Positions 2,365-56,169 of a stretch of 64,000 nt of DNA are shown piece by piece. The stretch is from Candidatus Brocadiia bacterium. GTDB taxonomy: Bacteria > Planctomycetota > MHYJ01 > JACQXL01. Location: NCBI GenBank assembly GCA_041658285.1, contig JBBAAP010000001.1, positions 260,916 to 324,915 on the forward strand. The letters run 5' to 3'. How positions within the stretch are numbered: position 1 is the first letter of the stretch; every line of letters starts with the position of its first letter. The notes beneath the pieces were generated by a model. That model was not told where the DNA came from. It did not search any database and saw only the letters and a list, made by a program, of their open reading frames with translations. The translations under genes and the position numbers were made by a program.

Positions 2365-2444
2365 AGGTTTACCTTTACCACAAAGACACTAAGGACACAA
2401 AGAATAATTTACCTTCGTGCTCTTTGTGCCTTTGTGGTTAATTA

Positions 2445-19003: not shown

Positions 19004-20767
19004 CTACCTCTTAAAGAACTTGCCTATCTGGTCTTTAGTCAGCTTATATATGGCCGGGCGGCCGTGCGGACAGGTGGCTTTGTAGCCGCTCTTTTCAGCC
19101 AAATCCAACAGAGCTTTTATCTCTTGCCCGGACATCGGGTCGCCGGCCTTGATGGCCGCCTTGCAGGCCATCATCTTGACCATCTTGTCCAGGACCTTGG
19201 TTCGGTCTGATTTTGATATGTCATCATCAGCCAGCTCGTCCAGCAGTGATTTGATAAACTCGGCCATATCAATCTTTGTCAGCAACGCCGGCACGGCCAG
19301 TATCCGAACGGTATTCCTGCCGAACTCCTCGACCTCCAGCCCGATATCCTTCAGATACTCCGCCGCCTCGCGGACCAGCAGGAACTGCTTATGGGTCAGC
19401 TCGACCGACTGCGGCAGCAATAACCGCTGTTTTAGGACGCTGCCGGCCGAGAACTGTTCCATAAACGCCGTATAAAGCAGGCGCTCGTGCAGGGCGTGCT
19501 GGTCTATTATGGCCATGCCGTCCGGGACTTCCATTATAATGTAAGAGTTGTGGATTTGTATGAAAGGCAGCCGAGCGGTCCATCGATTCTCTTGCCCGCT
19601 GGTCTCTGTGTCCGGATATGAACTAACCGGCTGACCAACATCCTTGCCTCCGAAAAAATCCATCATCGCTTTCATTGTCCCGCTCTGTACTGATTCCTGA
19701 GGTATCACGCCGCCCGGCTCTATGGTGTTAATCCCCTCTAAAGGCCGGCCATCATTTGTCTGATGTGTCTGTGTCTCGCCAACCAGTTTGCCCCTGATAG
19801 TCGAGATAATCCGGTCGTGTAGCTGCCAGGCGTTGCGGAAACGCACCTCTATCTTGGTCGGGTGGGCGTTAACGTCCACCTGCGACGGGTCGATATCGAT
19901 AAACAAGACCACGAACGGGTACTGGCCGGACGGTATCAGCGAATAATACGACTGCCCGATAGCCCGGCTGATGACTCGGTCGCGGATGTAACGGCGGTTT
20001 ACGTAATAGAACTGGTATTTGGAATTAGGCCGGTTATATTCCGGGCGCGACATATACGCCCTGATGCTTAGGCCTTCGGACCGGTATTCGACGTATTCCA
20101 GCTGGCCGGCCGTGTCAGTGCCGAAAAACTGCCTGATGCGCTCCATCAAATCATCGGTCGCCGGCAGGTTGATTAACTGCTTATCCTGATGCTTGAGCAA
20201 AAAGCGCACCTCCGGGTGCGACAGTGCAAAACGGGTGACCGCGTCGGTGATATGCCCCAGCTCCACGGGCGGGCTTTTGAGGAACCGGCGCCGGGCCGGG
20301 GTATTGAAAAATATGTTCTCCACGGTGATGCTTGTGCCGGGCGCGCCGGCTGTCGGCTTGGGTTCGGTCACCTGTCCGCCTGATGCGGTAATCTCGTATG
20401 CCTCGGTCCGGTCAGCCGTCCGGGACACCAGCCTGACCTGCCCGATGGCGCCGATGCTGGCCAGCGCCTCGCCCCGAAACCCGAATGTCCGGACGGCAAA
20501 CAGGTCTTCCTCGGTATCTATCTTGCTGGTCGAATGCTGTTTGAATACCAGCGGCAGGTCGTCCGGCAGGATACCCCGTCCGTCATCGGTGATGCGGATG
20601 ACCCGCTTGCCGCCCTCTTCGACATAGACCTCGATGGACCGGGCGCCGGCGTCGAGCGAGTTCTCTATCAACTCCTTGACCACCGAGGCCGGGCGCTCGA
20701 TAACCTCACCAGCCGCTATTTTGTCTGCCAGCAGCTGTGATAATACTTTTATCCTATTTGAATCCAT
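19004..20767 (-). CDS. mutL: DNA mismatch repair protein MutL
   Basis: It has the GHKL ATPase N-terminus (LADKIAAGEVIERPASVVKELIENSLDAGA) and a C-terminal dimerisation domain. Confidence 0.95.
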   Translation of the reverse strand: MDSNRIKVLSQLLADKIAAGEVIERPASVVKELIENSLDAGARSIEVYVEEGGKRVIRITDDGRGILPDDLPLVFKQHSTSKIDTEEDLFAVRTFGFRGEALASIGAIGQVRLVSRTADRTEAYEITASGGQVTEPKPTAGAPGTSITVENIFFNTPARRRFLKSPPVELGHITDAVTRFALSHPEVRFLLKHQDKQLINLPATDDLMERIRQFFGTDTAGQLEYVEYRSEGLSIRAYMSRPEYNRPNSKYQFYYVNRRYIRDRVISRAIGQSYYSLIPSGQYPFVVLFIDIDPSQVDVNAHPTKIEVRFRNAWQLHDRIISTIRGKLVGETQTHQTNDGRPLEGINTIEPGGVIPQESVQSGTMKAMMDFFGGKDVGQPVSSYPDTETSGQENRWTARLPFIQIHNSYIIMEVPDGMAIIDQHALHERLLYTAFMEQFSAGSVLKQRLLLPQSVELTHKQFLLVREAAEYLKDIGLEVEEFGRNTVRILAVPALLTKIDMAEFIKSLLDELADDDISKSDRTKVLDKMVKMMACKAAIKAGDPMSGQEIKALLDLAEKSGYKATCPHGRPAIYKLTKDQIGKFFKR

Positions 20768-21188
20768 TTTTGTAAGCAGATTAAGCTGATTTATCTGATT
20801 TTAATCAAGTATTAATTTAGATTAGTAGACCGCTTATGTCAACCAAATTTCCTACACCCGAATACTTCAAATATAACCACTAAAACTACTGATTTTTAAT
20901 TTTACCACGAAGACACGAAAGTAAGAAAGCACTAAATTTCGTGTTTTGATAGTTTGGCTGTTAGAACATAGTGAGTTATCAGCCGACTATACCTAGCAGT
21001 CCATCGGCTGTTAGCGACAAAGGAGCGTTACAGCCGAGGATACCCAGCAGTAATTCACTAACGTTCAAACTGCTGGAGTATAATTCGCTAACACTCAAAC
21101 TGCCAGAGTACTGTTTCGAGTTTTCGTGGTATATTAATAAAATAATCAGTGTTCTCAGTGCCCTCAGTGGTTTAATATGGCGGATTTC
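20768..21188. repeat. Intergenic region composed of CAC-NNA-G family repeat modules
   Basis: It contains TACCACGAAGACACGAAAGTAAGAAAGCACTAAATTTCGTGTTTTG and GAGTTTTCGTGGTATATTAATAAAATAATCAGTGTTCTCAGTG. Its segments 20950-21000 and 21090-21110 recur as reverse complements at 23950-24040. Confidence 0.75.
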
Positions 21189-22451
21189 TTAAACAGTATC
21201 AGCCAATACGCTAATGGCGTGGCGGACCTTGACCCGGCCCTTATCAGCCGAACCGAGCAGGTATTCCAATTGCATCATACAGCCCGGGCAGTTGGTGACC
21301 ACAACATCGGGATTGGATTTGACAATACCGTCCAGCCGGGCTTGGCCGATGCGCCGGGACAGCTCCGGATACTTAAAACCGAACAACCCGCCCCCGCCGC
21401 AGCACAGGTCGGCCTCGGATTCACGATAGGCAGTTTCCTTGCGCAGGAACGACCTTATCATCTCCGGCGAATTATTCCAGGTGGAATGGCAAGGCTCGTG
21501 GTATAATGTAGAGTTCGGAGCGCTGGGTTTGGAGTAATTAATTCTATTCTCAGCCAGGCAGAATTCCATCACATCCATTATCTCAGGATGGCTCTGTGTC
21601 CTCTGAGCCTCCGTAGCTAGTAACAAAGGATACTCCGTTTTAAGCATCCGGCCGCAGGTAGCGCAAGCGGTCAGGACGATGTCAGCGTCCTTAAGCGCTT
21701 TGATATTATGTTGGGCCAGCTTCCGGGCGGTCCGGACATCACCCGAAAGCAATGCCGGCAGTCCGCAGCATAACTGGTCCTGCGGAATATAGTAATACAC
21801 GCCCATCTTATCCAGCACCTTGATGATATCGCCCAGCACTTCAGGGTAGATATAATTTATGGCACATCCGACGAATATAGCCACCTTTGGCTTATTGCCT
21901 CTGTGGCTCTGTGGCAAATATGAATCCAGCGCCGGTTTCTTAGCCAGCCGCGGTATCTTGGCAGTCAGCTCGCCCAGCGCCAGAGGCAGGTGCCGGAGCG
22001 GCGGACGGGCATACCCTGTAGAGGCAGGCCTCGCGCCTGCCTTATTTCGGGCAACCGCAAGGGTTGCCCCTACAAATTTCCAAATAGGAATAATCCGACT
22101 CATTACCCAAATCGACAGGTCATAGAGCCAGCGGTGCGGCAGAATCCAGTTAAACCCGAGCCATACCGGCAGAGGCAGTCCCTTTTGACGGACCGCCCGG
22201 GCCCGGCCGGACTTGAAGGCCTTGCCGGTCTCAACCAATGACGGGCAATTATCCTCACAGCGCAGGCACATCAGGCAGGAGTTGATAATCTCACGGGACC
22301 GGCTGGAATGGATGGGCAGTTGTTCCTTAAGGAAGGCAATGCGTCCGCGTGCCACCAGGGCTTCATCTTTAAGCGCGGCGAATACCGGGCAGACCGACCG
22401 GCACTGGCCGCATTTAGCGCACTGTTCTAAAACTTGAGGGTCTAATCTCAT
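21189..22451 (-). CDS. glcF: (Fe-S)-binding oxidoreductase, GlcF/GlpC-like, with two 4Fe-4S motifs and CCG domains
   Basis: It has CAKCGQCRSVCP and CLMCLRCEDNCP ferredoxin motifs followed by cysteine-rich CCG domains (CCGLPA, CCGGGG). Confidence 0.8.
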   Translation of the reverse strand: MRLDPQVLEQCAKCGQCRSVCPVFAALKDEALVARGRIAFLKEQLPIHSSRSREIINSCLMCLRCEDNCPSLVETGKAFKSGRARAVRQKGLPLPVWLGFNWILPHRWLYDLSIWVMSRIIPIWKFVGATLAVARNKAGARPASTGYARPPLRHLPLALGELTAKIPRLAKKPALDSYLPQSHRGNKPKVAIFVGCAINYIYPEVLGDIIKVLDKMGVYYYIPQDQLCCGLPALLSGDVRTARKLAQHNIKALKDADIVLTACATCGRMLKTEYPLLLATEAQRTQSHPEIMDVMEFCLAENRINYSKPSAPNSTLYHEPCHSTWNNSPEMIRSFLRKETAYRESEADLCCGGGGLFGFKYPELSRRIGQARLDGIVKSNPDVVVTNCPGCMMQLEYLLGSADKGRVKVRHAISVLADTV

Positions 22452-22502
22452 TATTAATTAGCCACGAATAAACTCGAATTAACACTAAATTATTCGTGTT
22501 TA

Positions 22503-23906
22503 TTAGTGTGCATTCGTGGTTTCAGCGGGGAATATTTTGCCGGAATTCATTATCCCCTTGGGGTCAAAGAGTGTTTTCAACTGCTTCATCAGCTCTATCT
22601 CGGCGGCGCTCAGCTCCAGCGCCAGGAAACGCGACTTGGTCAGCCCGATGCCGTGCTCGCCTGAAAGCGTTCCGCCGCACTTAACGGTCTCGGTAAAGAG
22701 TTCGTCCAACGCCTTTTCCAACGATGTTTTGTGTGCCTCGTTAGAGATAAGGAAATTAACGTGCAGGTTGCCGTCGCCCAGATGGCCGAAGGTGGCAATG
22801 GGGATTCCGTATTTTGATTCTATGGACTTAATCACGGCCAGGATATGGGTGATTTGGTCACGCGGCACGCAGATGTCCTCACTGGCCTTCTGGGCGGTGA
22901 TGGAATAAAGCGCCGGAGAAACGGCCTTGCGGATGGCCCAGAGCGATTTGGCTTCTTCCGGGCCGTTTGCCCGGAGCATCTTGCCCGGCCTTGACTGGCT
23001 GATTAATTCCTCCAGCGCCTTGGCTTGGCCGGCCAAGTCGTTCGGGTCGCCGTCCAGCTCTATCAAAATCCCGCTCCCAATTTCGGATTTCGGATTTCGG
23101 ATTTCGGATTTACCAAAATCAATATCTTTAAGATATGCTGTAACCGCCTTGAGCGATGAAGCGTCCATAAACTCTATGGCCCGGGGCAATATCCGTTTGG
23201 CCAGCGTATCCAACCCCAGCTTTACGGCCGCCGGTTCATTATCGTAAAATATAAAGAAAGTCGCCTCGGACTGCGGTTTGGGCACCAGCCGCAGGATTAT
23301 CTGGGTGATGATGCCCAGGGTTCCCTCGGAACCGATAAACAGGCGGGCCAGGTCGTAGCCGGTCGAGCGCTTGAGCGTCTTGCGTCCGGTATGGATGATT
23401 TGACCGCTGGGCAGGACAGCTTCCAGCCCAAGCACGTAATCCCTGGTGGTGCCGTATTTGATACAGCGCAGGCCTCCGGCGCCGCAGGCAACATTGCCGC
23501 CCAGGGTGCAGAAATCGGCGCTGGCCGGGTCAGGCGGGTAAAACAGGCCGTGCCGGCTGACCGCCTTCTGAAAATCAGCGCAGACCACACCCGGCTCAAC
23601 CACGGCCGTGAAGTTAACCGGATTAATCTCTATGATACGGTTCATTAAAGACAGGTCTATGACAATCCCGCCCTTGACCGGCACGGCCGAGCCGGTAACG
23701 GAACTGGCCGCACCCCGCGGGTAGACCGGGGTAGCGTGCTCCGAGGCAATCTTAAGGACATCGGATATCTCGGCGGCATTAAGCGGCTTAACAACTATGT
23801 CCGGCAGATGCTGGAGTTTGGAGGCGTCGTAAGACGCGGCTAACCGGTCCTCAGGCAACCTGGAAATCCGTTCCGCCGAGATTATTTTTCTTAGTTTGTC
23901 GTACAT
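22503..23906 (-). CDS. glcD: FAD-linked oxidase, GlcD / D-lactate dehydrogenase-like
   Basis: It has the FAD-binding PCMH domain (PRGAASSVTGSAVP...) and the conserved C-terminal GTLSGEHGIG motif. It contains an in-frame heptanucleotide repeat insert. Confidence 0.85.
   Translation of the reverse strand: MYDKLRKIISAERISRLPEDRLAASYDASKLQHLPDIVVKPLNAAEISDVLKIASEHATPVYPRGAASSVTGSAVPVKGGIVIDLSLMNRIIEINPVNFTAVVEPGVVCADFQKAVSRHGLFYPPDPASADFCTLGGNVACGAGGLRCIKYGTTRDYVLGLEAVLPSGQIIHTGRKTLKRSTGYDLARLFIGSEGTLGIITQIILRLVPKPQSEATFFIFYDNEPAAVKLGLDTLAKRILPRAIEFMDASSLKAVTAYLKDIDFGKSEIRNPKSEIGSGILIELDGDPNDLAGQAKALEELISQSRPGKMLRANGPEEAKSLWAIRKAVSPALYSITAQKASEDICVPRDQITHILAVIKSIESKYGIPIATFGHLGDGNLHVNFLISNEAHKTSLEKALDELFTETVKCGGTLSGEHGIGLTKSRFLALELSAAEIELMKQLKTLFDPKGIMNSGKIFPAETTNAH
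23080..23111. repeat. Heptanucleotide microsatellite (ATTTCGG) x4.6 inside the glcD-like coding sequence
   Basis: Copies start at 23080, 23087, 23094 and 23101, followed by a partial copy. On the minus strand it encodes KSEIRNPKSEIG, an insert relative to E. coli GlcD in the loop before the conserved ELDG. Confidence 0.85.
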
Positions 23907-24190
23907 ATTAATTAGTTTACTTAGGATTATGTATAAATCAAGACATTTAAGAAAGTATACTCTGGCAGTTTGATGGCGTCTTTGGCGCCAGAATTACTGC
24001 CAAGTATCCTGGGCTAATAACTCACTGCATTCTAACAGCCCACGGATAATTAAAGTTGAGTTCTGGCCAAATAAATTGACACTTCCGGATAAAATGACTT
24101 AATATGATTTAAGGAAAATAAAATCAGGCAAAAGGAAATAGACGCGAACGGGTGTGTTTCCAACCCAAATAATAATGATGGAGGCTAAAT

Positions 24191-26014
24191 ATGGGTTTAT
24201 TTGCGTCAATAATTCATTTACGAGATGTTGAGCAAAACCAGGTAATCAAAGAAATTGATAAGCGTATGAGTGAGTCAGGGTATCGCAGGAGTGAATTATT
24301 GTCTATTCCCCAAAGTGGTCCTTCCACACTCCCCGACCACAAAAAATGGATGAACGATGGCAAGTACTACTTAGTTTCGCCTAAACAAGGTAATTGGGTA
24401 ACCATTATTGAGTCGCCACTTGTAACTACCGAACCATATGGAAGCGGCCTTGCCAACATGTTAAGCAAAACATTATCCACATACTCATTAGCGTTAAGTG
24501 TCCACGATAGTGATATCTTCTTCTACAATTTAGATTATAAGGGAGTCCCCAAAGACGGGTATAACAGTTATCCTCAGTACTTTGAGGATGCGCGACTCAG
24601 TAATGCTAAGGTAAAAGAACAAAGGCATACGCCGGAAGAGTTTCAACCAATTTTACCTCAAGGCGTAACAATGGAGCAATTAAAAAACATTTTAAATGCC
24701 GGCTGGTGGAATGAATTTGATACGGGTTCTTTAGGTAATGATGGCGCAGTCACCGGAAATGATGAGTATTTTGGTTCAGAGGAAAATAGAATGACCGATT
24801 TTGGCACCTTACTACAATTAGGTGGCAAAGTGACTAAATATCCATATGCGTTTTGGGATGGGTCGGAAGATATTCTATGGAAGGAATTCAAGGCTATTAG
24901 ATACTTAAAACAGAAAAATAGCTGTATGATATTTTTCGATAATGAAATCCAGGAGAACTCAACTTATGCACAAAGGTTTTTTTCCTTATGCATTGATTTC
25001 AGCACATTTTTATTATTAGCATTAATTTGTACACTAGCGCCTGAGCCATACGATACAATTTCCGCATTTACCTTGATTGTATGGTATATTGTATGGCATA
25101 AAATATTCCGAAAAACAGGACAAACCATTGGAACAAAGTTAATGAGAATAAGAGTTGTTCCGATGTATGGGTCTAAATTATCTTTTATAGCCCCGTTTTA
25201 CCGAATATTTTTAAGCGCTCCTCAATTTGCTCTTTTTGCGGCATACGAAAACATAGACCGGCATGAAGACCAATCTATCCTTGATAAGGTATCGCATACA
25301 TATACAATTAAACTAAAAAATAAAATCGTTAGCAAAGGGACCGTTTCTACCGGCGGAGATGCTGCAACCCAGGGACAAAAAATCTTTACAGGCAGAAATA
25401 AATACCGCCAAGCGAGCATTCAACGACTGAGCAAGTTTGGTATCAAAATTCCCGGACACCTACCTTTAATCGAGAATAATTCGGAGTTGAATCCTAGAAG
25501 TAAGGATGAGGTAATAGGCAAAATATGCGCCTTTGGATATGTCATTGGCATGGGGTACACTGATAAAACAGATGATTTGATTGCCAGTATAGATAAATAC
25601 AAACTTTGGCCATATGTCAGTCAGTTCCAGGCCAAGTGCCTTAAAAATCCGGGTAGTATAACAAAACAGGACAAGACAAATTTTATGTGGCTGGCCGAGT
25701 GCGTTTATGCATTTGCTTGGTGTCTGAAGATTGTTGAACTGGATTGCACTAAAACCTGCCCTGATAATCTGGCTGATTTAACCGTTCCAGGCCATACGCC
25801 GGATGAATTCATGAAGAACAAGGAAATGAGGAGCCTTGAAGAAATACAACAAGAAGCGGATTTTCATTACTGCTTACATTGGTATGAGCAACAATGCCGT
25901 ATAGATGGCAAAAAGGGGTTAGTTGGAGAAGGGGTAATCTGGGAAAGAAGAAGAGCATTGGATTGGACGATTGGCGTTTCTAACGACTGGGATGATATGC
26001 CAAGCGATACCTAA
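24191..26014 (+). CDS. Hypothetical protein with a central RDD-family membrane domain (low-GC islet)
   Basis: 607 aa with GGAGG as SD. The central TM pair carries the RDD-like motif (GQTIGTKLMRIRVV). The C-terminal ~250 aa contain FMWLAECVYAFAWCLKIVE ... ERRRALDWTIGVSNDWDDMPSDT, which resembles DUF4272-type C-terminal domains. GC content is markedly lower than in the flanking DNA. Confidence 0.6.
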   Translation: MGLFASIIHLRDVEQNQVIKEIDKRMSESGYRRSELLSIPQSGPSTLPDHKKWMNDGKYYLVSPKQGNWVTIIESPLVTTEPYGSGLANMLSKTLSTYSLALSVHDSDIFFYNLDYKGVPKDGYNSYPQYFEDARLSNAKVKEQRHTPEEFQPILPQGVTMEQLKNILNAGWWNEFDTGSLGNDGAVTGNDEYFGSEENRMTDFGTLLQLGGKVTKYPYAFWDGSEDILWKEFKAIRYLKQKNSCMIFFDNEIQENSTYAQRFFSLCIDFSTFLLLALICTLAPEPYDTISAFTLIVWYIVWHKIFRKTGQTIGTKLMRIRVVPMYGSKLSFIAPFYRIFLSAPQFALFAAYENIDRHEDQSILDKVSHTYTIKLKNKIVSKGTVSTGGDAATQGQKIFTGRNKYRQASIQRLSKFGIKIPGHLPLIENNSELNPRSKDEVIGKICAFGYVIGMGYTDKTDDLIASIDKYKLWPYVSQFQAKCLKNPGSITKQDKTNFMWLAECVYAFAWCLKIVELDCTKTCPDNLADLTVPGHTPDEFMKNKEMRSLEEIQQEADFHYCLHWYEQQCRIDGKKGLVGEGVIWERRRALDWTIGVSNDWDDMPSDT

Positions 26015-26103
26015 GAGCCCTTGGGGACAGTCCCGCATTCGAGAGCCCTTGGGGACAGTCCCGCATTCGGCAAGAGCCCTTGGGGACAGTCCCGCATTCG
26101 GCA
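26014..26103. repeat. Tandem array A: 3 copies of a 28-31-bp unit (AGAGCCCTTGGGGACAGTCCCGCATTCG) containing the GGGACAGTCCC palindrome
   Basis: The copies start at 26014, 26042 and 26073 with no spacers. The first copy overlaps the stop codon of the 607-aa gene. Confidence 0.85.
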
Positions 26104-26180
26104 AACGCTGTTTTTATAGCCATTCCAAGGCGTTATTTTCTAAAAATAACCCTCTTTTAGCCTTGGAGAGTATTATATAG

Positions 26181-26311
26181 GAGCTGTGTTAGTCAACACC
26201 GGAGCTATGTGATATAACATAAGAGCTGTGTGATATAACATAAGAGCTGTGTGATATAACATAAGAGCTGTGTGATATAACATAAGAGCAATATGACATC
26301 ATATTGCTCTT
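26181..26311. repeat. Tandem array B: 5 copies of a 21-bp unit (GAGCTGTGTGATATAACATAA) followed by a perfect 11-bp-stem hairpin
   Basis: The copies start at 26181 (degenerate), 26202, 26223, 26244 and 26265. The hairpin AGAGCAATATG-ACAT-CATATTGCTCT follows at 26284-26311. Confidence 0.85.
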
Positions 26312-26458
26312 GGGGCCCGGATAAACCAAGTAATTAAGCCCATTTAAGAGCATCATTTTCTCAAACCCGCCCTATTCCACCTCAAAAACGAATATAACGC
26401 ACTTCCAGCCAGGGGGGGGTATCCCCCCCATACTATACCCCCTCCCCCCGGATACTAC

Positions 26459-26580
26459 ATACCTTGTGAGGTGGTTATATATACCTTGTGAGGTGGTTAT
26501 ATATACCTTGTGAGGTGGTTATATATACCTTGTGAGGTGGTTATACATACCTTGTAAGGTGGTTATATATACCTTGCATC
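26459..26580. repeat. Tandem array C: 5.5 copies of a 22-bp unit (ATACCTTGTGAGGTGGTTATAT), preceded by G8 and C7 homopolymer tracts at 26412-26429
   Basis: The copies start at 26459, 26481, 26503, 26525 and 26547, with a partial copy at 26569. The array abuts the suhB stop. Confidence 0.85.
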
Positions 26581-26584
26581 TTAC

Positions 26585-27391
26585 CTACCCCCTATTTATG
26601 ACCCGGACCATCTCGTTATGTATCAATCCGTTGGAGGCAAGAATCTCTCTCTTGCCAAACAACCGGAACGGCCCGCCCTTGAAGTCGCTGACCTTGCCGC
26701 CGGCCTCCTGCGCGATAAGCGCTCCGGCCGCCGTATCCCAGGGCTTTAATTCCCGTTCCCAGAACCCGTCCAGCCGACCCATAGCTAAATAGCATAAATC
26801 CAAAGCGGCCGCCCCAGCCCGGCGCACCGCCTGGGCCGTCAGGCAGAAGCGTTGGAAGTTCCTAAAGTTATCACCAGGCTTCTGTCTTATAATGTAAGGA
26901 AACCCGGTGCAGAGCATGCCGCTGGTCAGGCGTTTGACCTTTGATACCTTTATTCTTCCATCATTAAGCCACGCGCCCTTTCCTTTGACGGCTGAGAATA
27001 ACTCGTCCAGGGCCGGACTATAGACCGCGCCGATAAGCGGCGTCTGGCCTTGCACCAGGGCTATGGACACGCAATAGAACGGGAATGAGTGCGAGAAGTT
27101 TGTAGTGCCGTCCAAAGGGTCGATGACCCAACATAATGATGAATTATGAGTTATAAATTCTGAATTATAACGCCTTATCGAACCAGCGTCTTCTTCGGAC
27201 AAGATTTGGTGCTGTGGAAAGCGCTTGCGGATGGCGCTGATAATCAGCTTCTCGGAGAGCTTGTCGGCTTTGGTGACCAGGTCAAGCTCGGTGGACTTGG
27301 TTTTGGCAGAACATCTGCCTTCGAGACTGTGTATTAACCGCCCAGCCCGACGGGCAAGAACCCTGGCAAATTGGAGATATTCGTTCATCAT
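26585..27391 (-). CDS. suhB: Inositol monophosphatase family protein (SuhB-like)
   Basis: It has the WVIDPLDGTTNF and GAAALDLCYLA... IMPase motifs. Confidence 0.85.
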   Translation of the reverse strand: MMNEYLQFARVLARRAGRLIHSLEGRCSAKTKSTELDLVTKADKLSEKLIISAIRKRFPQHQILSEEDAGSIRRYNSEFITHNSSLCWVIDPLDGTTNFSHSFPFYCVSIALVQGQTPLIGAVYSPALDELFSAVKGKGAWLNDGRIKVSKVKRLTSGMLCTGFPYIIRQKPGDNFRNFQRFCLTAQAVRRAGAAALDLCYLAMGRLDGFWERELKPWDTAAGALIAQEAGGKVSDFKGGPFRLFGKREILASNGLIHNEMVRVINRG

Positions 27392-27459
27392 ATAAAGTTA
27401 TTTTAATAATACCCTCTTAGGGCCGGACTGTCAAAACAATCTTATTACCCGTCTTCGCC

Positions 27460-27610
27460 ATATTAAACCACTAAGTGCACTAAGAACACTGATTGTTTCA
27501 TTAATATACCACGAAAACTCGAAATAACCAAAACACAAAATTTAGTGTTTTCTTACTTTCGTGCCTTCGTGGTAAGATTGAAAATCAGTGATTTCAGTGT
27601 TCTCAGTGGT
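27460..27610. repeat. Mosaic palindromic intergenic repeat (CAC-NNA-G family), full copy
   Basis: The left arm AACCACTAAG..AACACTGA pairs with the right arm TCAGTGTTCTCAGTGGTT. The inner module ...CCACGAAAACTCGAAAT...CTTACTTTCGTGCCTTCGTGGTAAG is the reverse complement of the module at 28963-29040. Confidence 0.8.
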
Positions 27611-27616
27611 TGTATT

Positions 27617-28933
27617 TTAAGTATTAGGTTTTAACCGGCTGTTGAGCTGTTTTGCCTTGTCTTTGATAGCCTCTAAATCATCAAAACCAACGCCGGGCAT
27701 ACGGCAGGAGTAAACCGATTTGTTGTGCAGGAGCGGTTCGGCAGTTATCTGAGGAAGTTCTTTGGCCGCCTTGAGGAAATCTGGCGTGCCGGGAACCGGG
27801 GCGTATTGGGCCATCTTGATTATCCCGCCGCTTTTATGGACGAACTCGATGCTTTGGTCCACTTCCTCGAGCGCCTGGCCGGGCAGTCCCATCAGGACAT
27901 AAACGCCGACATCAACCGGCTTGAATCCGGATTGGTAAAGATAGCCCAGCGTCCGGGGCAGGTCGGCCGAAGCGGTCTTGCGCGACGAATCTTCCTGCCG
28001 ACTGACGCTCTCGAACCCGAGCCTGATGGTCTTGAATCCGGCCCGGCATAACTTGCCGGCCAGCTGTTTGTCTATCAAACTTATATGCAACCCGTTGGGC
28101 GTATGGAAACGCGCTTTTTGGTTAAGCCCCCGGCTGATGATGCCGTCAATAATCGGTTCGATATGCTTATGGCTGTCGAACAACAGGGCGTCATCGTAAA
28201 AGGCGATATCCTCAACGCCCAAATCCGAAATATAATAATTTATTTCATCGATTACCTGACTGGGTTCCCGGCAAGTATAGCCGTCGTTAAGCTCTGCGCT
28301 GGCGCAGTATGAACAGCGGAACGGGCATCCGCGCGAGGTAATCATCGCCGCGGATTTCAATCCCGGATAAAGATGATAGGCCGGATAGGATTCTGTATTT
28401 GGAGTATTGGATACGGGATTTATTCCGATTGTCTTAACTAATTCCAGGACCTGCTCCTCGCCCGGCCCGGTGATGACATAATCAGCCCCGGAGTTCCGGC
28501 GGGCGTGTTCGGCGCAGAGCGTGGCATATACCCCGCCCAAAGCTATGGGCGATTTCGGATAGGCTTTCCGGATAACAGCGATGATCTCAGCCACGCCGGT
28601 GTACCAGTAGGTCATCATCGAGGTGACCAGAACCAGGTCCGGTTCGGACGGCAATGCCTTGAGCCGGCCGGCTAATTCCGCGGGCGTGATGCCGTAACGT
28701 TTGTACTTGCGCGGTATCCCGGAAAAACAGTCCGGCTTGGCGATTACCTGGCTCCGGAAATGGCCGCAGTTATACGGGCCGGAAGACTCTACGCCCTCGG
28801 CCAGGCAATCAATCAGGCTGATTGGGTAACCGCGCTGCTCCAGGAATCCGCCCAGATACAAAAGGCCAAGCGGCTTCATCCACAGGTCATAGGCGGCGAA
28901 GTCGTGTATCCAGGGATTGACCAGAAGAATCAT
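27617..28933 (-). CDS. B12-binding domain / radical SAM protein
   Basis: It has an N-terminal cobalamin-binding Rossmann domain and a CPFRCSYC radical SAM cluster motif. Confidence 0.8.
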   Translation of the reverse strand: MILLVNPWIHDFAAYDLWMKPLGLLYLGGFLEQRGYPISLIDCLAEGVESSGPYNCGHFRSQVIAKPDCFSGIPRKYKRYGITPAELAGRLKALPSEPDLVLVTSMMTYWYTGVAEIIAVIRKAYPKSPIALGGVYATLCAEHARRNSGADYVITGPGEEQVLELVKTIGINPVSNTPNTESYPAYHLYPGLKSAAMITSRGCPFRCSYCASAELNDGYTCREPSQVIDEINYYISDLGVEDIAFYDDALLFDSHKHIEPIIDGIISRGLNQKARFHTPNGLHISLIDKQLAGKLCRAGFKTIRLGFESVSRQEDSSRKTASADLPRTLGYLYQSGFKPVDVGVYVLMGLPGQALEEVDQSIEFVHKSGGIIKMAQYAPVPGTPDFLKAAKELPQITAEPLLHNKSVYSCRMPGVGFDDLEAIKDKAKQLNSRLKPNT

Positions 28934-28940
28934 AGATTAA

Positions 28941-29045
28941 TCCAAATACAACCACTAAGAACACTGAAATCACTGATTTCAATCTTACCACGAAGGCACG
29001 AAAGTAAGAAAGCACTAAATTTCGAGTTTTCGTGGTATATTAATA
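28941..29045. repeat. Mosaic palindromic intergenic repeat (CAC-NNA-G family), inverted relative to the copy at 27460-27610
   Basis: The sequence is AACCACTAAGAACACTGAAATCACTGATTTCAATCTTACCACGAAGGCACGAAAGTAAGAAAGCACTAAATTTCGAGTTTTCGTGGTATATTAATAAAA. Its terminal 30 bp are identical to 21116-21145. Confidence 0.8.
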
Positions 29046-29070
29046 AAACTTTACCGTGAAATCAGATGAA

Positions 29071-29754
29071 TCAGCGGTTTCTTTTTATGACAAACACCCA
29101 TAAGGGAGGAACGAACATTATCAGCAGTAATACTGCAGCCAGCCCGATATTTATTGGCTGGCTGAGGATGGCGTATGATTTGTCGATATTAGGCCGGGTC
29201 AACTGCCAGACCTGGGGCAGGCTGTTCATTGTTACCAATCTAAGATAGAAGAATATTATCAGGCTCATCACCCTGAGAAACCGCCACTGTTCCAGGTGCT
29301 TGGTTATCTGGACCCAGCTGAACTGCCCGTTGGCCGGGATATTGCTCGGCCACAGGCGCGGGATGATGCGCGGCACTTTTTGGCAGTAGGCGTCATAATC
29401 CGCTCCGAAACGCTGGCGCAGGAATGTTTCCTCCTTGCGGATGCGCCAGTTGATGACGCCCAAATAGAAAATAACCATATAGGCAACGGTGATATAAATA
29501 TTGAGCGAGATGATGCAAAGCCCGGCATCGAGCAGGATATTGGCGAAGTAAAACGGGTTGCGGACAAACCGGTACGGCCCGGCGGTGATGAGCTGTTCCT
29601 GCTTGACCAGGTAACCGGACGAGATGAAGTGTATGACCTGTCCGACGAATATGAGCGCCCCGCCGATTACCAGCGAGGTAACGCTGGGATAAGACCAGAC
29701 CAGCAGGGACAGGATGAATAACTTGCGGACATTGGTCCGGAGCTTGAATTTCAT
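29071..29754 (-). CDS. Isoprenylcysteine carboxyl methyltransferase (ICMT)/PEMT-family membrane methyltransferase
   Basis: It has the GPYRFVRNPFY and EE..L...FG..Y..Y motifs of the ICMT/PEMT family. Confidence 0.75.
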   Translation of the reverse strand: MKFKLRTNVRKLFILSLLVWSYPSVTSLVIGGALIFVGQVIHFISSGYLVKQEQLITAGPYRFVRNPFYFANILLDAGLCIISLNIYITVAYMVIFYLGVINWRIRKEETFLRQRFGADYDAYCQKVPRIIPRLWPSNIPANGQFSWVQITKHLEQWRFLRVMSLIIFFYLRLVTMNSLPQVWQLTRPNIDKSYAILSQPINIGLAAVLLLIMFVPPLWVFVIKRNR

Positions 29755-45492: not shown

Positions 45493-45556
45493 TAGCCACA
45501 GAGTCACAGAGGACACGGAGTAATACTAATGGTTTTGTCCCCTGTAGTTTTATAGA

Positions 45557-45925
45557 ATGGACATTAACCAACTTACGGAAAAAATTATCGGATGTGCGAT
45601 TGAAGTTCATCGATATCTTGGACCAGGGTTGCTTGAAAATATCTATGAATCCGCTCTCTGTATTGAGTTAGAAGCGGCTAAGTTAAAATATGGCCAACAG
45701 GTAGTTATACCGGTTATTTATAAAGGGAAACAAATTGGAGAAAACAGGATCGATTTAATAGTGGAAAATGAGGTCGTAGTTGAAATAAAGAGTGTGGAAA
45801 GATTTGATCCGGTTTTTGAAGCACAGGTTTTGACATATTTAAAAATAACTGGTAAAAAAGTTGGGTTATTGATTAATTTTAACAGTCGATTGCTTAAAGA
45901 CGGAATAAAAAGATTCATATTATGA
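45557..45925 (+). CDS. GxxExxY protein (PD-(D/E)XK nuclease superfamily, TIGR04256-like)
   Basis: 122 aa with G-LLENIY and D.IVE..VVVEIK motifs. It is low-GC and sits inside a palindromic intergenic repeat. Confidence 0.85.
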   Translation: MDINQLTEKIIGCAIEVHRYLGPGLLENIYESALCIELEAAKLKYGQQVVIPVIYKGKQIGENRIDLIVENEVVVEIKSVERFDPVFEAQVLTYLKITGKKVGLLINFNSRLLKDGIKRFIL

Positions 45926-46026
45926 TTCTCCGTGAACTCTATGTTTCTGTTAAAAGACGGGAATAGGAAAAATTATATTATGATTCTCTGTGAACTCTGC
46001 GCCTCAGTGGCAAAGACAAGGTATTT

Positions 46027-47586: not shown

Positions 47587-49041
47587 GTGCTCATCAAACA
47601 AAGGACCAAAAACCTAATCCCCGCACTCCTGCTTATCCTCTGCCTTGCCCTGCCCAGCGCCGTAATATTAGCCGCCTCGCCGACGACGGACATCGCCGGC
47701 CGGATTGACTCGTTGGTGGTCAAGCACCACCTGACCAAGTCGCACCTGGGCGTCAAGATAATCTCCTGGCCCGAACGCCAGGTCGTCTACGAAAAGAACC
47801 CCGACTATCTTATGGCCGTGGCCTCCAATATGAAACTCATCACCACCGGCGTGGCACTGTGCAAACTCGGGCCGGACTTCCAGTTCGCCACCTCGCTTTA
47901 TTACGACGGCGTTATACAGAACGAAACTCTCCAGGGCAACCTGGTGGTCAAGAGCAACGGCGACCCCAATATCTCCGGCCGGTTCTACAACGACAAACCG
48001 CTGGCCGTATTCGAGCAATGGCGTAATAAGCTGGCCGGGCTGGGCGTTACCAACGTCCAGGGCAATATCATCCTCGACGATACCGCATTCGACCGCGACT
48101 ACGTCAACGACTACTGGCCCAGCAACCAGCTCAACTGCTGGTACTGCGCCCCGGTCTCGGGCATCGCCTTCAACGACAACTGCATCGACATCACTGTCCG
48201 CCCGGCCGAAAATACCAAAGCCGCGACATCGCCCCCGACCAAATACGTCAGCCTCATCAACAACAGCTATCCGGGCTCCAGAAATACCCTGACCTTCTGC
48301 CGCCTGCCCGGCACCAACGTCATCACCGTCAAAGGCGCCATCTCCGGCGATATACTCTGCCACAAGGAATCAGTTCCGGTGGACAACCCGGTTTTATTCT
48401 TCGGCACGGTCCTTTCGGAAACGATGACCAAGAACATAACCATCAGCGGCAAGGTCGTCCTGGCCGAACGCGCCTACGACCCCAAGGCCGACCGGCTGAC
48501 CGAAATCTGCCGGAACAGCACCGACCTCAAGAAGACCATCACCGTCACCAACCAGCGCAGCCAGAACCTCTACGCCGAACAGATATTCAAACTGCTCGGA
48601 TGCCAGTTCAAGGGCAAAGGCACATTCGAGACCGGCGCCGCCGCCGTCGGCGATTTCCTGGACCGGCAGGTCAATATCCCCAGCAATACTTACCTGATAT
48701 CGGACGGCTCAGGCCTGGCCCGGAGCAACTGGGTCGCCCCCGGCCAGATGGTCCAGTTCCTGAGCTATATGGCCGGCCACAAGTATTTTAACGATTACCG
48801 CGACTCGCTCAACAACCGCGCCTGGCCCGAAGGCAACAACAAGAAGAAATCACGCATCTGGGCCAAGACCGGCACCATCAACAACGTTAAATGCCTGTCC
48901 GGATACGTCTGCGGCGACAACGGCAAGCCCAGGTATATATTTTCCATAATGAACAACGGGCTAGAATACGTGCCCGAAGGCCCCTACGGCGCGCTCGAAT
49001 TCCAGAACGAGGTGGCGAAATTATTAGCCGAAGAAAAATAG
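47587..49041 (+). CDS. dacB: D-alanyl-D-alanine carboxypeptidase/endopeptidase (PBP4, S13 family)
   Basis: It has a signal peptide, an SxxK motif (SNMK) and overall PBP4 architecture. Confidence 0.85.
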   Translation: MLIKQRTKNLIPALLLILCLALPSAVILAASPTTDIAGRIDSLVVKHHLTKSHLGVKIISWPERQVVYEKNPDYLMAVASNMKLITTGVALCKLGPDFQFATSLYYDGVIQNETLQGNLVVKSNGDPNISGRFYNDKPLAVFEQWRNKLAGLGVTNVQGNIILDDTAFDRDYVNDYWPSNQLNCWYCAPVSGIAFNDNCIDITVRPAENTKAATSPPTKYVSLINNSYPGSRNTLTFCRLPGTNVITVKGAISGDILCHKESVPVDNPVLFFGTVLSETMTKNITISGKVVLAERAYDPKADRLTEICRNSTDLKKTITVTNQRSQNLYAEQIFKLLGCQFKGKGTFETGAAAVGDFLDRQVNIPSNTYLISDGSGLARSNWVAPGQMVQFLSYMAGHKYFNDYRDSLNNRAWPEGNNKKKSRIWAKTGTINNVKCLSGYVCGDNGKPRYIFSIMNNGLEYVPEGPYGALEFQNEVAKLLAEEK

Positions 49042-49254
49042 CCACTGAGGCACAGAGAACACCGAGAATTAATTATATTTAATCTCTATGAACTCTGAGT
49101 CTCTGTGGCTTAACTTATGAGAAAAGAAGAATACACCACAGACAAGCTCGAATACAATCTGGTTTTATAAGGAATCCAAGAGAACAAGAATAATTATTTT
49201 TCCTGAATTCCTGGTCTCCTTATAAATAGAATTCTCAGTGCTCTCTGTGCCTCT

Positions 49255-50136
49255 GTGGCAAAGATTTATATGAGATATGAAGGCAACATCATCCGCCCGC
49301 CCAGCGAGGCAGACAGTTATCTGCTCCAGATAACCTACGGCTGTTCGCACAACAAATGCGCCTTCTGCGGCACCTACGACCAGAAATTCCGCGTCCGCCC
49401 GCTCGAAGACGTCCTGACCGACATCGCACTGGCCGGCAAATGCGTGCCCCACACCCGGCGTGTGTTCCTGTGCGACGGCGACGCTATGATTCTGCCCAAC
49501 AGCCAGCTCCTGAAAATACTCAAAGCGCTGGCTATGGTTTTCCCCGAGCTCCAACGGGTTGGCATCTACGCCAACGCCCGCGATATAATCAAGAAGACCG
49601 ACTCCGAGCTGGCCGAGCTGGCTGAACACAAGCTGACCATCGCCTATATCGGGCTGGAAAGCGGCAACGACGAAGTGCTCCGCCGTGTCAACAAAGGCGC
49701 CACCGCATCGGATATGATAACAGCCGTTAAGAAAGCACAGGCCAACGGCATAAAGATGTCCGTCATCGGGCTGATTGGGCTGGGCGGTAAAGAGCTCTCC
49801 CAACCGCACGCGCTGGACACGGCCAAAGCCGTCAACCTGATGAACCCGCGTTATTTCAGCCTGCTTACATTAATGATAGTAAACGGCACGCCGCTGGCCG
49901 ATGATTATAAGTCAGGCAAGTTCGAACTGCCCGAAGCCGAGGATATGGTCAAAGAAATCCGGCTGGTAGTCGCCAACATAGACAGCAACCAGACCATCTT
50001 CCGAGCCAACCACGCATCCAATTACGCGCCGCTGGCCGGCACCTTCAACAAAGACAAAGCCCGACTACTGGCCGAGATAGACAGCTACCTTAAGGGCGAC
50101 AACAACTTCCGCCCCGAGTTCATGCGCGGATTGTAG
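49255..50136 (+). CDS. Radical SAM protein
   Basis: It has a GCSHNKCAFCGTY cluster motif (C-x4-C-x2-C variant). Confidence 0.7.
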   Translation: MAKIYMRYEGNIIRPPSEADSYLLQITYGCSHNKCAFCGTYDQKFRVRPLEDVLTDIALAGKCVPHTRRVFLCDGDAMILPNSQLLKILKALAMVFPELQRVGIYANARDIIKKTDSELAELAEHKLTIAYIGLESGNDEVLRRVNKGATASDMITAVKKAQANGIKMSVIGLIGLGGKELSQPHALDTAKAVNLMNPRYFSLLTLMIVNGTPLADDYKSGKFELPEAEDMVKEIRLVVANIDSNQTIFRANHASNYAPLAGTFNKDKARLLAEIDSYLKGDNNFRPEFMRGL

Positions 50137-51158: not shown

Positions 51159-51729
51159 AAATCACCTCTTACTCGCTGTTAGCCTTCAGACATCCCGAAA
51201 GCATTCGGGAGGGCTGAGGCGTTACAGCCGAGTTAGATCCCGTCTGTTCCGACGGGATAATCCTTGCAGAATTCTATCTCGTTATACGGATACAGTGTCC
51301 GAATTCCACCCAAGAAACCCATATTCGCAGGAGACAAGGGCAACCCTTTGGCCAAGGAAACCCGGGGCAACCCGGCATCCCTGCCCGACTGGTCAGCCAC
51401 CCCTACCAACCCGGTCAGGCGGGCTTACGGATACCCCGGAGGGTGCGTTTCCTGTGCCCGAGGGCGCCCTTGCCCTCCACTATATACTCTGCCGGACCCC
51501 CACCCCTTTTGGGGAAAAATCCGGGAATTCCGGAAAGAAAGTTTAGCCAGAGCAAAACCTCCTGTAAGGACGGATTAACACGGATAAATATGGCTATAAT
51601 TAAATCTGTGTAATCAGTGGCTAAAACTTGACAGCCCCACGGAAATGGTATATTAGAGGCTTATTAATTATTAATTGAAGTTGTGGCAAAGTCAAGCAGG
51701 TAAAATAATCGTATTAAAGGATGCGTTGT

Positions 51730-53699: not shown

Positions 53700-54065
53700 C
53701 CTCAAGCCCATCCATATCTACCCAGGGCTTGGGGGTGCTTATACCTCCAACCCACCCATATCTACCTAGGGCTGGACCGTCATCCACCCTGGGATTGACC
53801 GTAATCCACCCAGGGCTTGAGGGTCATTATACCTCCAGCCCACCTACATCTTACCTCCAACCCATCCACATCTACCCAGGGCTTGACCGTCATCCACCCT
53901 GGGCTTGACCGTAATCCACCCAGGGCTTGGGGGGCATTATACCTCCATACCACCCACATCTTACCTCCAACCCATCCACATCTACCCAGGGCTGGACCGA
54001 CATCCACCTAGGGCTTGACCGTAATCCACCCAGGGCTTGAGGGTAATTATACCTGGTATGGAGGG
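53700..54065. repeat. Minisatellite: ~110-bp unit, ~3.3 tandem copies with nested 22-bp sub-repeats
   Basis: TCTACC(C/T)AGGGCT recurs at 53761, 53871 and 53981 (period 110), and ATCCACCCAGGGCTTGACCGT-like subunits recur within each unit. The ORFs called here (53395..54090, both strands) are repeat artefacts. Confidence 0.8.
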
Positions 54066-54203
54066 TAAGGCACCTTCGGAGTACTCGCAAATATTTTGAC
54101 TTATTTTATGTTTTAACCTATATTAAAACACGAAGCAGACGAATAATCTTTAATGCCACGAATAAGATTCGTGGGATTCGTTCTATTAGTGAGATTCGTG
54201 TTT

Positions 54204-54884: not shown

Positions 54885-55036
54885 CTAAGAAGAATTAGCC
54901 ACGAATGGACACGAATAAACACGAATATCACGGATTAAATTAATACTAGGAGAATTTACCACGAAGGCTCGAAACTATTAAAGCACGGAATATTTCGGGT
55001 TTTCGCTATTTCGTGGTTTCGTGGTAAAGGACTTAT

Positions 55037-56105: not shown

Positions 56106-56169
56106 GATAATACTTATAATTTCTGATTTTTACTATTTCGTGTTTTCGTGGTAAGGCAAGGGAGCTTAT

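Follow-up and report, generated by a model that had tools for sequence, protein, structure and literature searches.

We analysed a family of palindromic intergenic repeats in a 64,000-nt stretch of the genome of a Candidatus Brocadiia bacterium (contig JBBAAP010000001.1; hereafter the window), of which 89% is coding and 11% intergenic. The repeats are gene-less copies of a small palindromic element, the complete form of which carries in its loop a single gene encoding a 120–130-aa GxxExxY / PDDEXK_3 protein. The element family is apparently mobile, and we infer that the nuclease moves the elements. A previous reading of the window, made without database searches (the sequence-only reading), had described the repeats; it overlooked the open reading frame (ORF) at 45557–45925 as the element's own cargo, as well as the spread of the family over multiple phyla. 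Every spacer named in that reading was inspected here, and the CAC-unit grammar that it proposed was searched directly across the window.

The complete element carries a PD-(D/E)XK nuclease gene

The gene-bearing form is represented in the window by the following features.

45493..46026, plus strand: complete ORF-bearing cassette, 534 nt, with its left arm at 45495–45525 (GCCACAGAGTCACAGAGGACACGGAG) and the nuclease ORF.
45557..45925, plus strand: GxxExxY / PDDEXK_3 nuclease gene, 122 aa, in the cassette loop.

The 122-aa ORF occupies the loop of the palindromic cassette, between the left and the right arm. On its 3' side, a degenerate right arm (45926–45950) starts at the first base past the ORF stop codon, and the cassette also carries a partial duplicate (58 nt) of the 3' end of the ORF, together with an intact right arm at 45975–46013. 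The encoded protein matched PF13366 with 147.8 bits (cut-off 22; E = 2e-43) over profile positions 2–117 of 117, and TIGR04256 ('GxxExxY protein') with 151.4 bits (cut-off 35). When it was aligned with 47 homologues, D66, E76, Q90 and Y94 were invariant and K78 was present in at least 90%, a conservation that corresponds to the PD-(D/E)XK triad and the QxxxY motif of RecB-family nucleases. As judged from these matches, the ORF encodes a full-length GxxExxY / PDDEXK_3 protein, predicted to be a minimal nuclease of the RecB/Cas4 kind that retains its catalytic residues. The AlphaFold model of the protein is confident (pLDDT 95), and a sequence search of the PDB detected no solved structure for it. 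The family is very large, with at least 7998 homologue clusters at E ≤ 1e-5; in a survey of the superfamily its function is given as 'Unknown', and 'multiple transfers' between divisions are noted (PMC3424549). The Pfam scan of 40 window proteins found neither a transposase nor a REP-associated tyrosine transposase (RAYT; REP, repetitive extragenic palindrome), and the other genes adjoining elements have ordinary housekeeping functions.

The association of arms with this gene extends well beyond the window. We scanned metagenomes with a three-sequence PDDEXK_3 alignment and kept the best 80 of more than 410 relatives, selected by protein similarity only. In the 70 loci whose flanks extend to 140 nt or more on either side of the gene, an arm was located upstream in 54, downstream in 54 and on both sides in 44, and arm density reached 6.5 per kb within 140 nt of the ORF versus 0.44 per kb elsewhere in the same loci. 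The strings GCCACAGAGNCACAGAGNCACAGAG upstream and CTCTGTGNCTCTGTGNCTCTGTGGC downstream were present in nearly all of these loci. The cassette units vary with lineage (CGCAGAG, CGCGGAG, CACGGAG, CGCCAAG and CTCAGAG), and a repeated CNCNNRR unit was found in the flanks of 82 of 88 cassettes. Viewed from the arms, left/right pairs standing 200–1200 nt apart with the gap filled by an ORF enclosed PDDEXK_3 in 39 of 43 cases; no other recurrent cargo gene was seen between arms in the loci examined.

Cultured isolates show the same arrangement. Arms are present at ade / GxxExxY / mannose-1-phosphate guanylyltransferase (manC) in Bernardetia and at radA / GxxExxY / FAD-dependent protein in Bacteroides finegoldii; Sphingomonas parapaucimobilis has fabD / GxxExxY / fabG with a CGCGAAG arm, and Gemmatirosa kalamazoonensis a frameshifted GxxExxY copy adjoining a CGCAGAG hairpin. 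Because four isolates share it, the arrangement is not an artefact of metagenome bins. The two proteins associated with CACGAA-type arms, from an archaeal-labelled bin and an Elusimicrobia bin, are mutual nearest neighbours (60% identity). A test of protein clade against arm type was not decisive because gene and arms are inherited together.

In one set of protein-first loci, the trpC-type junctions L139, L141, L157 and L164 read CTCTGTGGCAAATATTTTAGAA; there, the right arm ends in a GTG from which the reading frame continues into the downstream protein (V/M-A-N-I-L-E-T-I-V-E-Q), whereas the sister loci L142 and L155 retain a separate ATG. The end of the right arm may have been co-opted as a start codon in the trpC-type group. 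A terminal GTG serving as the start of the next gene was plausible in this locus set only, and is wrong for the ORF called at 49255 in the window.

The arms are inverted arrays of tandem units

Each arm consists of 2–6 tandem units of 8–10 nt (CCAC-NNA-G, CAC-NNA-G and the like). CAC opens each unit, and position 6 is an A, mostly with G after it; the unit consensus is C-(A/G)-C-N-N-(A/G)-G plus 1–3 spacer bases. The sequence-only reading had placed the unit words about 8 nt apart. The tandem CAC units are indeed there, with a spacing of 8, 9 or 10 nt (5, 14 and 4 cases, respectively, in the three-unit arms of the window). The outermost unit is preceded by C, giving CCAC, and the opposite arm terminates in GTGG; the element ends read TTT(A/G)CCAC ... 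GTGG(T/C)AAA. Examples of arms are ACCACAAAGACACTAAGGACACAAAG (2378), GCCACAGAGTCACAGAGGACACGGAG (45496), AACCACTAAGAACACTGAAATCACTGA (28952), TACCACGAAGGCACGAAAGTAAGAAAGCACTAAAT (28986) and GCCACGAATGGACACGAATAAACACGAATATCACGGA (54899). An 18-mer pattern, TACCACGAARRCWCGAAA, matched the window nine times versus none in 100 shuffles. Window arms of at least three strict units are all intergenic or extend across a gene end, apart from one unrelated coding GGM repeat. The latter belongs to the first of two adjoining GroEL-type chaperonin genes (9212–10957 and 11378–13000), whose GGM-repeat tail (10838–10930) yields spurious arm matches in simple CAC-unit scans.

The arrangement as long imperfect palindromes, as originally described, was recovered both by a repeat finder (inverted repeats I1–I19) and by folding. 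The elements of the window are imperfect palindromes of 60–160 nt, some nested in the loops of others, with long imperfect stems of predicted energies between −20 and −63 kcal/mol. Thirteen spacers in the 64 kb carry them. Arms were confirmed in 11 of the 12 spacers first listed; the remaining one, 23907–24060, has no arm and shares another repeat (I4) with 20956–21000.

The co-variation between arms claimed by the sequence-only reading was confirmed as a likeness of arms. Units within an arm share their variable dinucleotide more often than in permutations (p = 0.0003, 11 arms), and the two arms of an element resemble each other more than they do the arms of other elements (alignment scores 17.6 versus 14.7, p < 0.0002). 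In CCAC-type cassettes, spacers are identical in 37% of comparisons within an element versus 22% of those between elements (p = 0.003). Pairing, however, is not strictly compensatory: the dinucleotide between units 1 and 2 is fully complementary in just 7 of 68 CACGAAA-type hairpins. Its commonest state, seen in 28 of the 68, is AG in one arm versus AA in the other, so that one strand has a G.T pair where the other has an A.C mismatch.

Gene-less elements in the window

Besides the cassette, the window contains the elements listed below. As palindromes they are given without a strand; minimum free energies (MFE) are in kcal/mol, and paired values refer to the two strands.

2376..2439, no strand: ORF-less hairpin of CACAAAG/CACTAAG units, three per arm; MFE −34.7 on the minus and −23.4 on the plus strand.
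20861..21182, no strand: composite copy A (I1, I2, I4), 90% identical to copy B over 144 nt when the nested insert is left out.
22460..22520, no strand: ORF-less hairpin of 10-nt CACGAAT/CACTAAT units; right arm overlaps the last codons of the FAD-oxidase gene 22503–23906 (minus strand).
27456..27616, no strand: composite copy B (I3, I5, I8); MFE −62.7 / −53.7.
28944..29049, no strand: composite copy C; over 105 nt it matches B at 97% in inverted orientation, and 16 nt are deleted internally.
49040..49112, no strand: ORF-less hairpin of the CACAGAG/CACTGAG type, like the cassette arms; MFE about −31 on both strands.
49131..49260, no strand: second, disrupted CACAGAG-type element (I16), with a degenerate left arm at about 49131–49160.
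51575..51625, no strand: partial weak hairpin with CACGGAT / CACAGAT / CCACTGAT units; MFE −10.7. This is the thirteenth site, beyond those of the sequence-only reading.
54126..54203, no strand: ORF-less hairpin of CACGAAG/GACGAAT units with a small inner hairpin.
54897..55028, no strand: lone left arm of four 9–10-nt CACGAAT units (54897–54940), then a complete CACGAA-type hairpin (54955–55028); I18; MFE −28.2 / −19.8.
56134..56155, no strand: lone right arm of the CACGAA type (TTTCGTGTTTTCGTGGTA), 14 nt 5' of ATG 56170.

The three composites share one plan. In B, outer CACTAA/CACTGA arms (27466–27495 and 27582–27611) enclose an inner CACGAA-type hairpin (27505–27576). In A, outer CACTGA/CACTAA-type arms (20877–20900 and 21143–21172) enclose inner CACGAA-type arms (20903–20940 and 21114–21133), and the inner loop holds an additional nested element of 158 nt (20956–21113). 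The second outer arm of C is degenerate and extends into the 3' end of the gene 29071–29754 (minus strand). The identities between B and C (97%) and between A and B (90%) show recent duplication. Composite B begins 7 nt past the stop codon of the B12-radical SAM gene, and near-consensus sigma-70-type promoters lie between composite and next gene at 27434–27406 and 20842–20814 (both on the minus strand). The sequence-only reading had noted that inverted copies bracket the radical SAM gene, and B and C are indeed inverted copies; they are, however, two separate complete elements in neighbouring spacers, so the gene lies outside both and is not cargo.

A repeat pair around glcF-glcD exists as well, but belongs to a different family with its own internal inverted repeats (GGCTGTTAGAAC...ACTGCTGG / ACTGCCAG motifs). 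Its copies are located at 20956–21113, nested in the loop of composite A, and at 23958–24053, upstream of gene 24191; others occur at L095 5718–5812 and L104 1170–1220, in the relative genome and in another Planctomycetota bin. Within the CCG-domain Fe-S (GlcF-like) gene 21189–22451, the arm-like strings CCACAGAGCCACAGAGGC and GGCTCAGAGGACACAGAGCC (21585–21622 and 21880–21914, minus strand) are in frame and could be chance matches or old in-frame element remnants.

Elements sit after stop codons and upstream of sigma-70-like promoters of the next genes; their gene context is tandem in 15, convergent in 4 and divergent in 1 (n = 20). The hairpin 2376–2439 separates two co-directional minus-strand genes, a DUF502 gene and pyruvate phosphate dikinase, and the hairpin 49040–49112 begins within the TAG stop codon of the S13 peptidase gene. 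In the disrupted element that follows, a palindrome of another unit type is nested (49165–49228, TTATAAGGA..CCAAGA units), and the intact right arm (49230–49260) ends in GTGGCAAAG, 10 nt 5' of the true ATG at 49270. The observation that several elements end in GTGGCAAAG ahead of start codons thus stands for 46027, 49255 and 51721 as far as position goes; the ORF called at 49255, a radical SAM gene, truly starts at ATG 49270 by comparison with the relative. Likewise, the hairpin 54126–54203 ends directly 5' of the probable true start of a sigma-70-family gene (ATG 54204), which appears as an internal Met in the translation. In being small and non-coding, with terminal inverted repeats, the elements agree with miniature inverted-repeat transposable elements (MITEs).

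Palindromes of CCAGGAG/CCAAGAG units flanked by TTATAAGGA...TCCTTATAA, in which CCA replaces CAC in the tandem-unit grammar, were found at window 49165–49228, in L056 and L104, and in the closest relative at L221 6307–6340 and 7836–7930, where several flank a 471-aa ORF. The window also holds other tandem arrays. Three of them follow one another in the 570-nt spacer past gene 24191–26014, with a 28–31-nt unit in three copies (26013–26104), a 21-nt unit in 4.2 copies (GAGCTGTGTGATATAACATAA, 26202–26289) and a 22-nt unit in 5.4 copies (ATACCTTGTGAGGTGGTTATAT, 26459–26576); the closest relative has just two copies of the 22-mer ATACCTTGTGAGGTGGTTATAT at the orthologous place (L221 11480–11530). 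A 110-nt array at 53716–54054 (2.8 copies, 91% matches; 22-nt sub-units ATCCACCCAGGGCTTGACCGTA / TACCTCCAACCCACCCACATCT) lies in the spacer that precedes the sigma-70-family gene and is followed directly by the hairpin 54126–54203. Element arms stand on either side of the paralogous gene pair 55037–55564 and 55572–56105 (175 and 177 aa, 72–73% nucleotide identity over long stretches), one member of which has no Pfam match and the other a below-cut-off match to DUF2127.

Elements are polymorphic between relatives, nest in one another and decay

The closest available relative, JAZDFB010000010.1, is syntenic with the window (FloA 94% and radical SAM 89% identical; nucleotide divergence of about 15–20% across the compared region). 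Its NfeD1b / NfeD junction (L218) reads ...GTCTAA-A-ATGAGT..., empty and translationally coupled, whereas the window has 534 extra bases, TAGCCAC ... CAGTGGCAAAGACAAGGTATTT, between the matching TAA and ATG. The junction is also empty in a more distant relative (L220) and holds a different insert of about 50 nt in L219. The nuclease ORF therefore occupies a defined site with empty alleles in relatives, as homing genes do. The spacer between the S13 peptidase and radical SAM genes holds one CACGAA-type hairpin in the relative versus two CACTGAG/CACAGAG-type elements in the window, and the spacers around the B12-radical SAM gene differ completely, the relative having no composites and palindromes of CCAGGAG/CCAAGAG units instead. 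Over the time that separates related species, elements are thus gained, lost and replaced by others. At the sites of composites B and C, the relative has extra ORFs flanking the B12-radical SAM gene (L221 6372–7787 and 9390–10574; 471 and 394 aa, no Pfam match), and two rve-type integrase/transposase genes adjoin its inositol monophosphatase gene (L221 11540–14124).

Decayed cassettes document a route from coding to gene-less forms. One retains the last 36 codons only, between arm remnants (L095 5895–6045); another has lost about 290 nt of the ORF (L045 2218–2330); and in L153/L154, as at window 45975–46013, the ORF 3' end and the right arm remain.

A target-site duplication of TA, as left by IS630/Tc1-like elements, was considered and rejected. 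The flanking dinucleotide (TA, AA/TT or AG/CT) varies with the unit type and is palindromic, and hence is part of the element rather than a duplication.

The gene-less hairpin occurs in more than 15 phyla

The interpretation first offered depended on the motif not being confined to the window, and the motif was found in many other genomes and metagenome loci. One scan of species-representative genomes with a CACGAA pattern returned at least 120 stretches, many genomes matching several times. Among the matches listed, the ORF-less CACGAAA-type hairpin is spread over more than 15 phyla, under the labels Desulfobacterales, Planctomycetota, Elusimicrobiota, Ignavibacteria, Acidobacteriota, Gemmatimonadota, Armatimonadota, Bacteroidota, Nitrospirota, Latescibacterota, KSB1, WOR-3, Ratteibacteria, Edwardsbacteria, Desantisbacteria and Binatia, and one Thermoplasmata archaeon bin. 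A reverse-complement partner was found within 130 nt downstream of 77 of 124 left arms, versus 0 of 121 in the upstream control, and the median element of this type in these arm-first loci is 83 nt long. CACAGAG-type arms adjoin CACGAA-type arms in several phyla (L017, L065, L087, L097 and L127).

The arm-first loci (about 780 kb) contain only two PDDEXK_3 genes, and both touch arms. In an Elusimicrobia locus (L121), the ORF sits exactly in the hairpin loop; the hairpin is ORF-less in L032 and L036 of the same bin and in L059, L063 and L107 of another. In the Thermoplasmata bin (L045), the ORF lies between two complete hairpins, with a truncated copy close by. Viral contigs gave eight single matches to the arm pattern, judged to be near chance level, and an alignment search found no PDDEXK_3 relatives in them; the elements are therefore not obviously phage-borne.

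A selfish element family driven by a nuclease is the favoured explanation

Taking the positional association, the empty and filled alleles and the decay series together, we think it fairly probable that the repeats form a REPIN/RAYT-like or homing-like selfish element family, in which a PD-(D/E)XK nuclease replaces the HUH transposase. Elements insert into short intergenic spacers, typically right past a stop codon, and also into the loop of a resident element, insertions of the latter kind giving rise to the mosaic structures. In the mechanism we propose, the nuclease would recognise the unit arrays, or the hairpin or cruciform that they form, and cut there, and host repair or replication would copy the element at the break. 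In a homing variant, gene-less hairpins would be converted to gene-bearing ones via their loops; in a trans variant, the nuclease would mobilise ORF-less copies, as RAYT is thought to do for REPINs.

Several observations weigh against this explanation. The link between nuclease and arms is positional. A PD-(D/E)XK nuclease alone cannot join DNA, and to our knowledge no transposon relies on such an enzyme alone. ORF-less CACGAAA hairpins vastly exceed ORF-bearing ones in number. The window holds at least five unit types but one nuclease gene, so an enzyme specific for one unit type would require paralogues elsewhere in the genome. Arm type follows protein relatedness loosely, with CAC and CGC variants found among proteins 77–87% identical. 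A clear target-site duplication is lacking in the empty/filled pair, where AAGGCATAA and AAGGTATTT, the best candidate, agree at only 6 of 9 positions. Finally, the trpC-type and ligase-type junctions are filled alike in many divergent metagenome contigs, which argues for long vertical persistence rather than frequent movement.

The strongest competitor, which we consider unlikely, holds that the hairpins are structural or regulatory features useful to the host (stabilisers of mRNA 3' ends, RNase sites, terminators or supercoiling sites), and that the GxxExxY gene is a selfish loop-homer or a processing enzyme. It would account for the location of elements past stop codons and ahead of the next promoter, for the commonness of tandem and convergent contexts over divergent ones (15, 4 and 1), for stems as stable as −20 to −63 kcal/mol, and for the great excess of ORF-less copies; the position of the ORF always in the loop, where other elements also nest, fits it too. 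However, selection for an RNA hairpin, tested as G.U excess on the transcribed strand, gave a mixed picture in the window and no significant difference in a larger sample, in which the sense strand was the more stable one 8 times and the antisense strand 5 times (p = 0.29), so that orientation to transcription looks random; the near-identical composites B and C are themselves inverted relative to one transcription direction. Spacer complementarity is kept in only 7 of 68 hairpins. No Rfam family matched anywhere in the window at the gathering threshold, and a terminator scan of 20700–29200 flagged no element: the stems are A/T-rich and followed by YAAA ahead of a T-rich stretch, unlike the G+C-rich stem and T run of an intrinsic terminator. 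Orthologous spacers of the closest relative work without elements or with another type, and a purely structural role leaves unexplained why a CAC..AG unit recurs every 8–10 nt across phyla. Non-compensatory pairing, random orientation, the lack of Rfam and terminator matches and the cross-phylum unit together favour recognition of the units as sequence. This favours a protein acting on DNA as the simplest agent over selection for a transcript hairpin, with the reservation that the sample is small and an RNA role is possible.

Signals for the next gene, which the sequence-only reading suspected in the element ends, are not a general feature. Shine-Dalgarno-like motifs occur at 7% of outer ends versus 10% of controls, attractive as they are at a few sites (GTGGTAAAGG before the ATG at 2364, at 55037 and in L093). 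Resemblances to sigma-54 promoters, DnaA boxes and integron attC sites were dropped because spacing or motifs misfit.

Another alternative, quite improbable in our view, is that a canonical transposase (RAYT/HUH, IS630-like or other) from another part of the genome moves the elements as ordinary MITEs or REPs, and that the nuclease is irrelevant cargo. Small, high-copy, intergenic elements with terminal inverted repeats would suit such a transposase, TACCAC...GTGGTA ends could suggest a TA target, and the portion of the source genome examined is 64 kb. The flanking bases, though, are part of the palindrome and not a duplication; the elements lack a GTAG / CGTC tag; the 40 window proteins scanned include no transposase; and what paired arms enclose is PDDEXK_3 in 39 of 43 cases, not a transposase.

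Operator arrays for a DNA-binding regulator, for instance a ribbon-helix-helix protein on direct and inverted tandem 7–9-bp repeats, an idea also raised by the sequence-only reading, would fit short units every 8–10 bp in both orientations, homogeneous within an arm, and MetJ and omega repressor do bind tandem repeat arrays; yet the elements lie downstream of genes and upstream of promoter-like sites rather than over them, are nearly absent from divergent spacers (1 of 20), are insertions without counterpart in a close relative, nest and decay, and adjoin genes with no common function, which makes this explanation very improbable.

Relation to known systems

In logic, the elements come closest to REPIN/RAYT systems, or to a homing endonuclease gene around which a repeat shell has been acquired. 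REPIN-RAYT systems consist of REP doublets and RAYTs (Bertels & Rainey 2011, PMC3116915; Di Nocera et al. 2013, PMC3733652), a REP being defined as a 20–40-bp imperfect palindromic stem-loop with an unpaired GTAG/CGTC tag, and the RAYT gene being flanked by the repeats (PMC3733652). Both systems comprise short, dispersed, extragenic palindromes that can form hairpins, many gene-less copies per genome and a single small enzyme gene flanked by inverted repeats; both are placed past genes and persist in lineages for long. The elements described here differ in encoding a 120-aa PD-(D/E)XK (RecB/Cas4-like) nuclease instead of a HUH Y1 transposase, in having arms built as tandem arrays of 8–10-nt units instead of single 20–40-bp REP stem-loops, in lacking the GTAG or CGTC tag, in the often multi-copy and itself decaying nuclease gene, and in a spread over many phyla and one archaeal-labelled bin.

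The classification offered by the sequence-only reading, MITE or REP-like bacterial interspersed mosaic element (BIME), is right in that the elements are dispersed, palindromic, nested, intergenic and polymorphic, but they depart from the definition of classical REPs and BIMEs in tag and unit size, and the gene found between their arms is PDDEXK_3 rather than RAYT. The elements are high-copy, extragenic and mostly in co-directional or convergent contexts, as REPs and BIMEs are; they measure 60–160 nt, and an arm is not itself a palindrome, unlike the REP unit. With the BIMEs of Escherichia coli (REP/PU mosaics) they share a modular palindromic mosaic between co-directional or convergent genes and no similarity of sequence or unit; BIMEs alternate REP orientations with fixed linkers, whereas the elements here nest in loops. 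MITEs (Correia/NEMIS, RUP, Nezha) are likewise small and non-coding and have terminal inverted repeats; they too derive from a coding parent by deletion, are polymorphic for insertion among relatives and nest in one another. The parent here, however, encodes no recognisable transposase, only the 122-aa PD-(D/E)XK nuclease; there is no clear target-site duplication, and the inverted repeats are internally periodic.

Homing endonuclease genes are free-standing or intron-borne, and I-Ssp6803I is a homing enzyme of the PD-(D/E)XK fold. Like the cassette, they are small nuclease genes wedged precisely into conserved gene junctions, with empty and filled alleles and copies that degenerate after fixation. 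They do not normally lie within inverted repeat arrays or come with hundreds of gene-less shells, and their target is a unique conserved site, whereas here it would be a repeat. The intervening sequences of 23S rRNA (Leptospira type) carry a PF05635 ORF in the loop of a long stem, and RNase III removes them from the rRNA helices. As with the cassette, a long inverted repeat sits within an essential transcription unit, and its loop contains a small ORF whose family is expanded and uncharacterised; the ORF of the intervening sequences encodes a four-helix bundle rather than a nuclease, and they reside in rRNA helices. We know of no description of tandem-unit arms in them.

The searchable literature held no description of the association of arms with PDDEXK_3, although earlier informal knowledge of flanking repeats is possible. 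Exact-string searches with four CACGAAA-type and four CACAGAG-type 15-mers returned no papers; searches for GxxExxY, PDDEXK_3, PF13366 and TIGR04256 by name gave the superfamily survey ('Unknown') and incidental mentions only, and those for PF05635 and TIGR02436 nothing relevant.

Consequences for host genomes and for the nuclease family

The elements affect the assembly and annotation of the genomes that carry them. The only public contig returned for the identical B12-radical SAM protein (Logan contig L001, 1453 nt) corresponds to window 27554–29006; it starts within composite B and stops within composite C, and one end repeats the other in inverted orientation. The repeats evidently break short-read assemblies. 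Host ORFs run into arms before reaching a stop: the FAD-oxidase gene 22503–23906 ends ...T-T-N-A-H-stop inside a right arm (22503–22520), and a ribulose-phosphate epimerase gene (L214) ends inside a left arm (7038–7072). Elements thereby add or replace C-terminal residues of neighbouring proteins. Starts called from the longest ORF inside arms mislead as well, as with 49255 versus ATG 49270 and 54153 versus ATG 54204; judging from the sequence, the call at 54153 is probably wrong and the sigma-factor gene starts at ATG 54204. Elements also come between genes whose translation is coupled in relatives (TAA-A-ATG in L218). Annotation and operon prediction for Planctomycetota, Acidobacteriota, Desulfobacterota, Bacteroidota and others would gain from recognising them.

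More broadly, and tentatively, palindromes and GxxExxY nuclease might constitute a so far unrecognised class of mobile elements of prokaryotes that extends over phyla and possibly domains, and in which the nuclease drives the copying of itself and of hundreds of shells; in a variant of this proposal, the nuclease may be a dedicated hairpin-processing enzyme. The uncharacterised GxxExxY / PDDEXK_3 family gains a concrete candidate substrate, namely the inverted tandem-unit arrays that flank its genes. If true, this would be the first function for a very large uncharacterised protein family and would explain a type of repeat that many uncultured lineages have in their spacers. The arrangement is a possible second system of nuclease and palindromes, parallel to REPIN/RAYT but based on a different enzyme fold.

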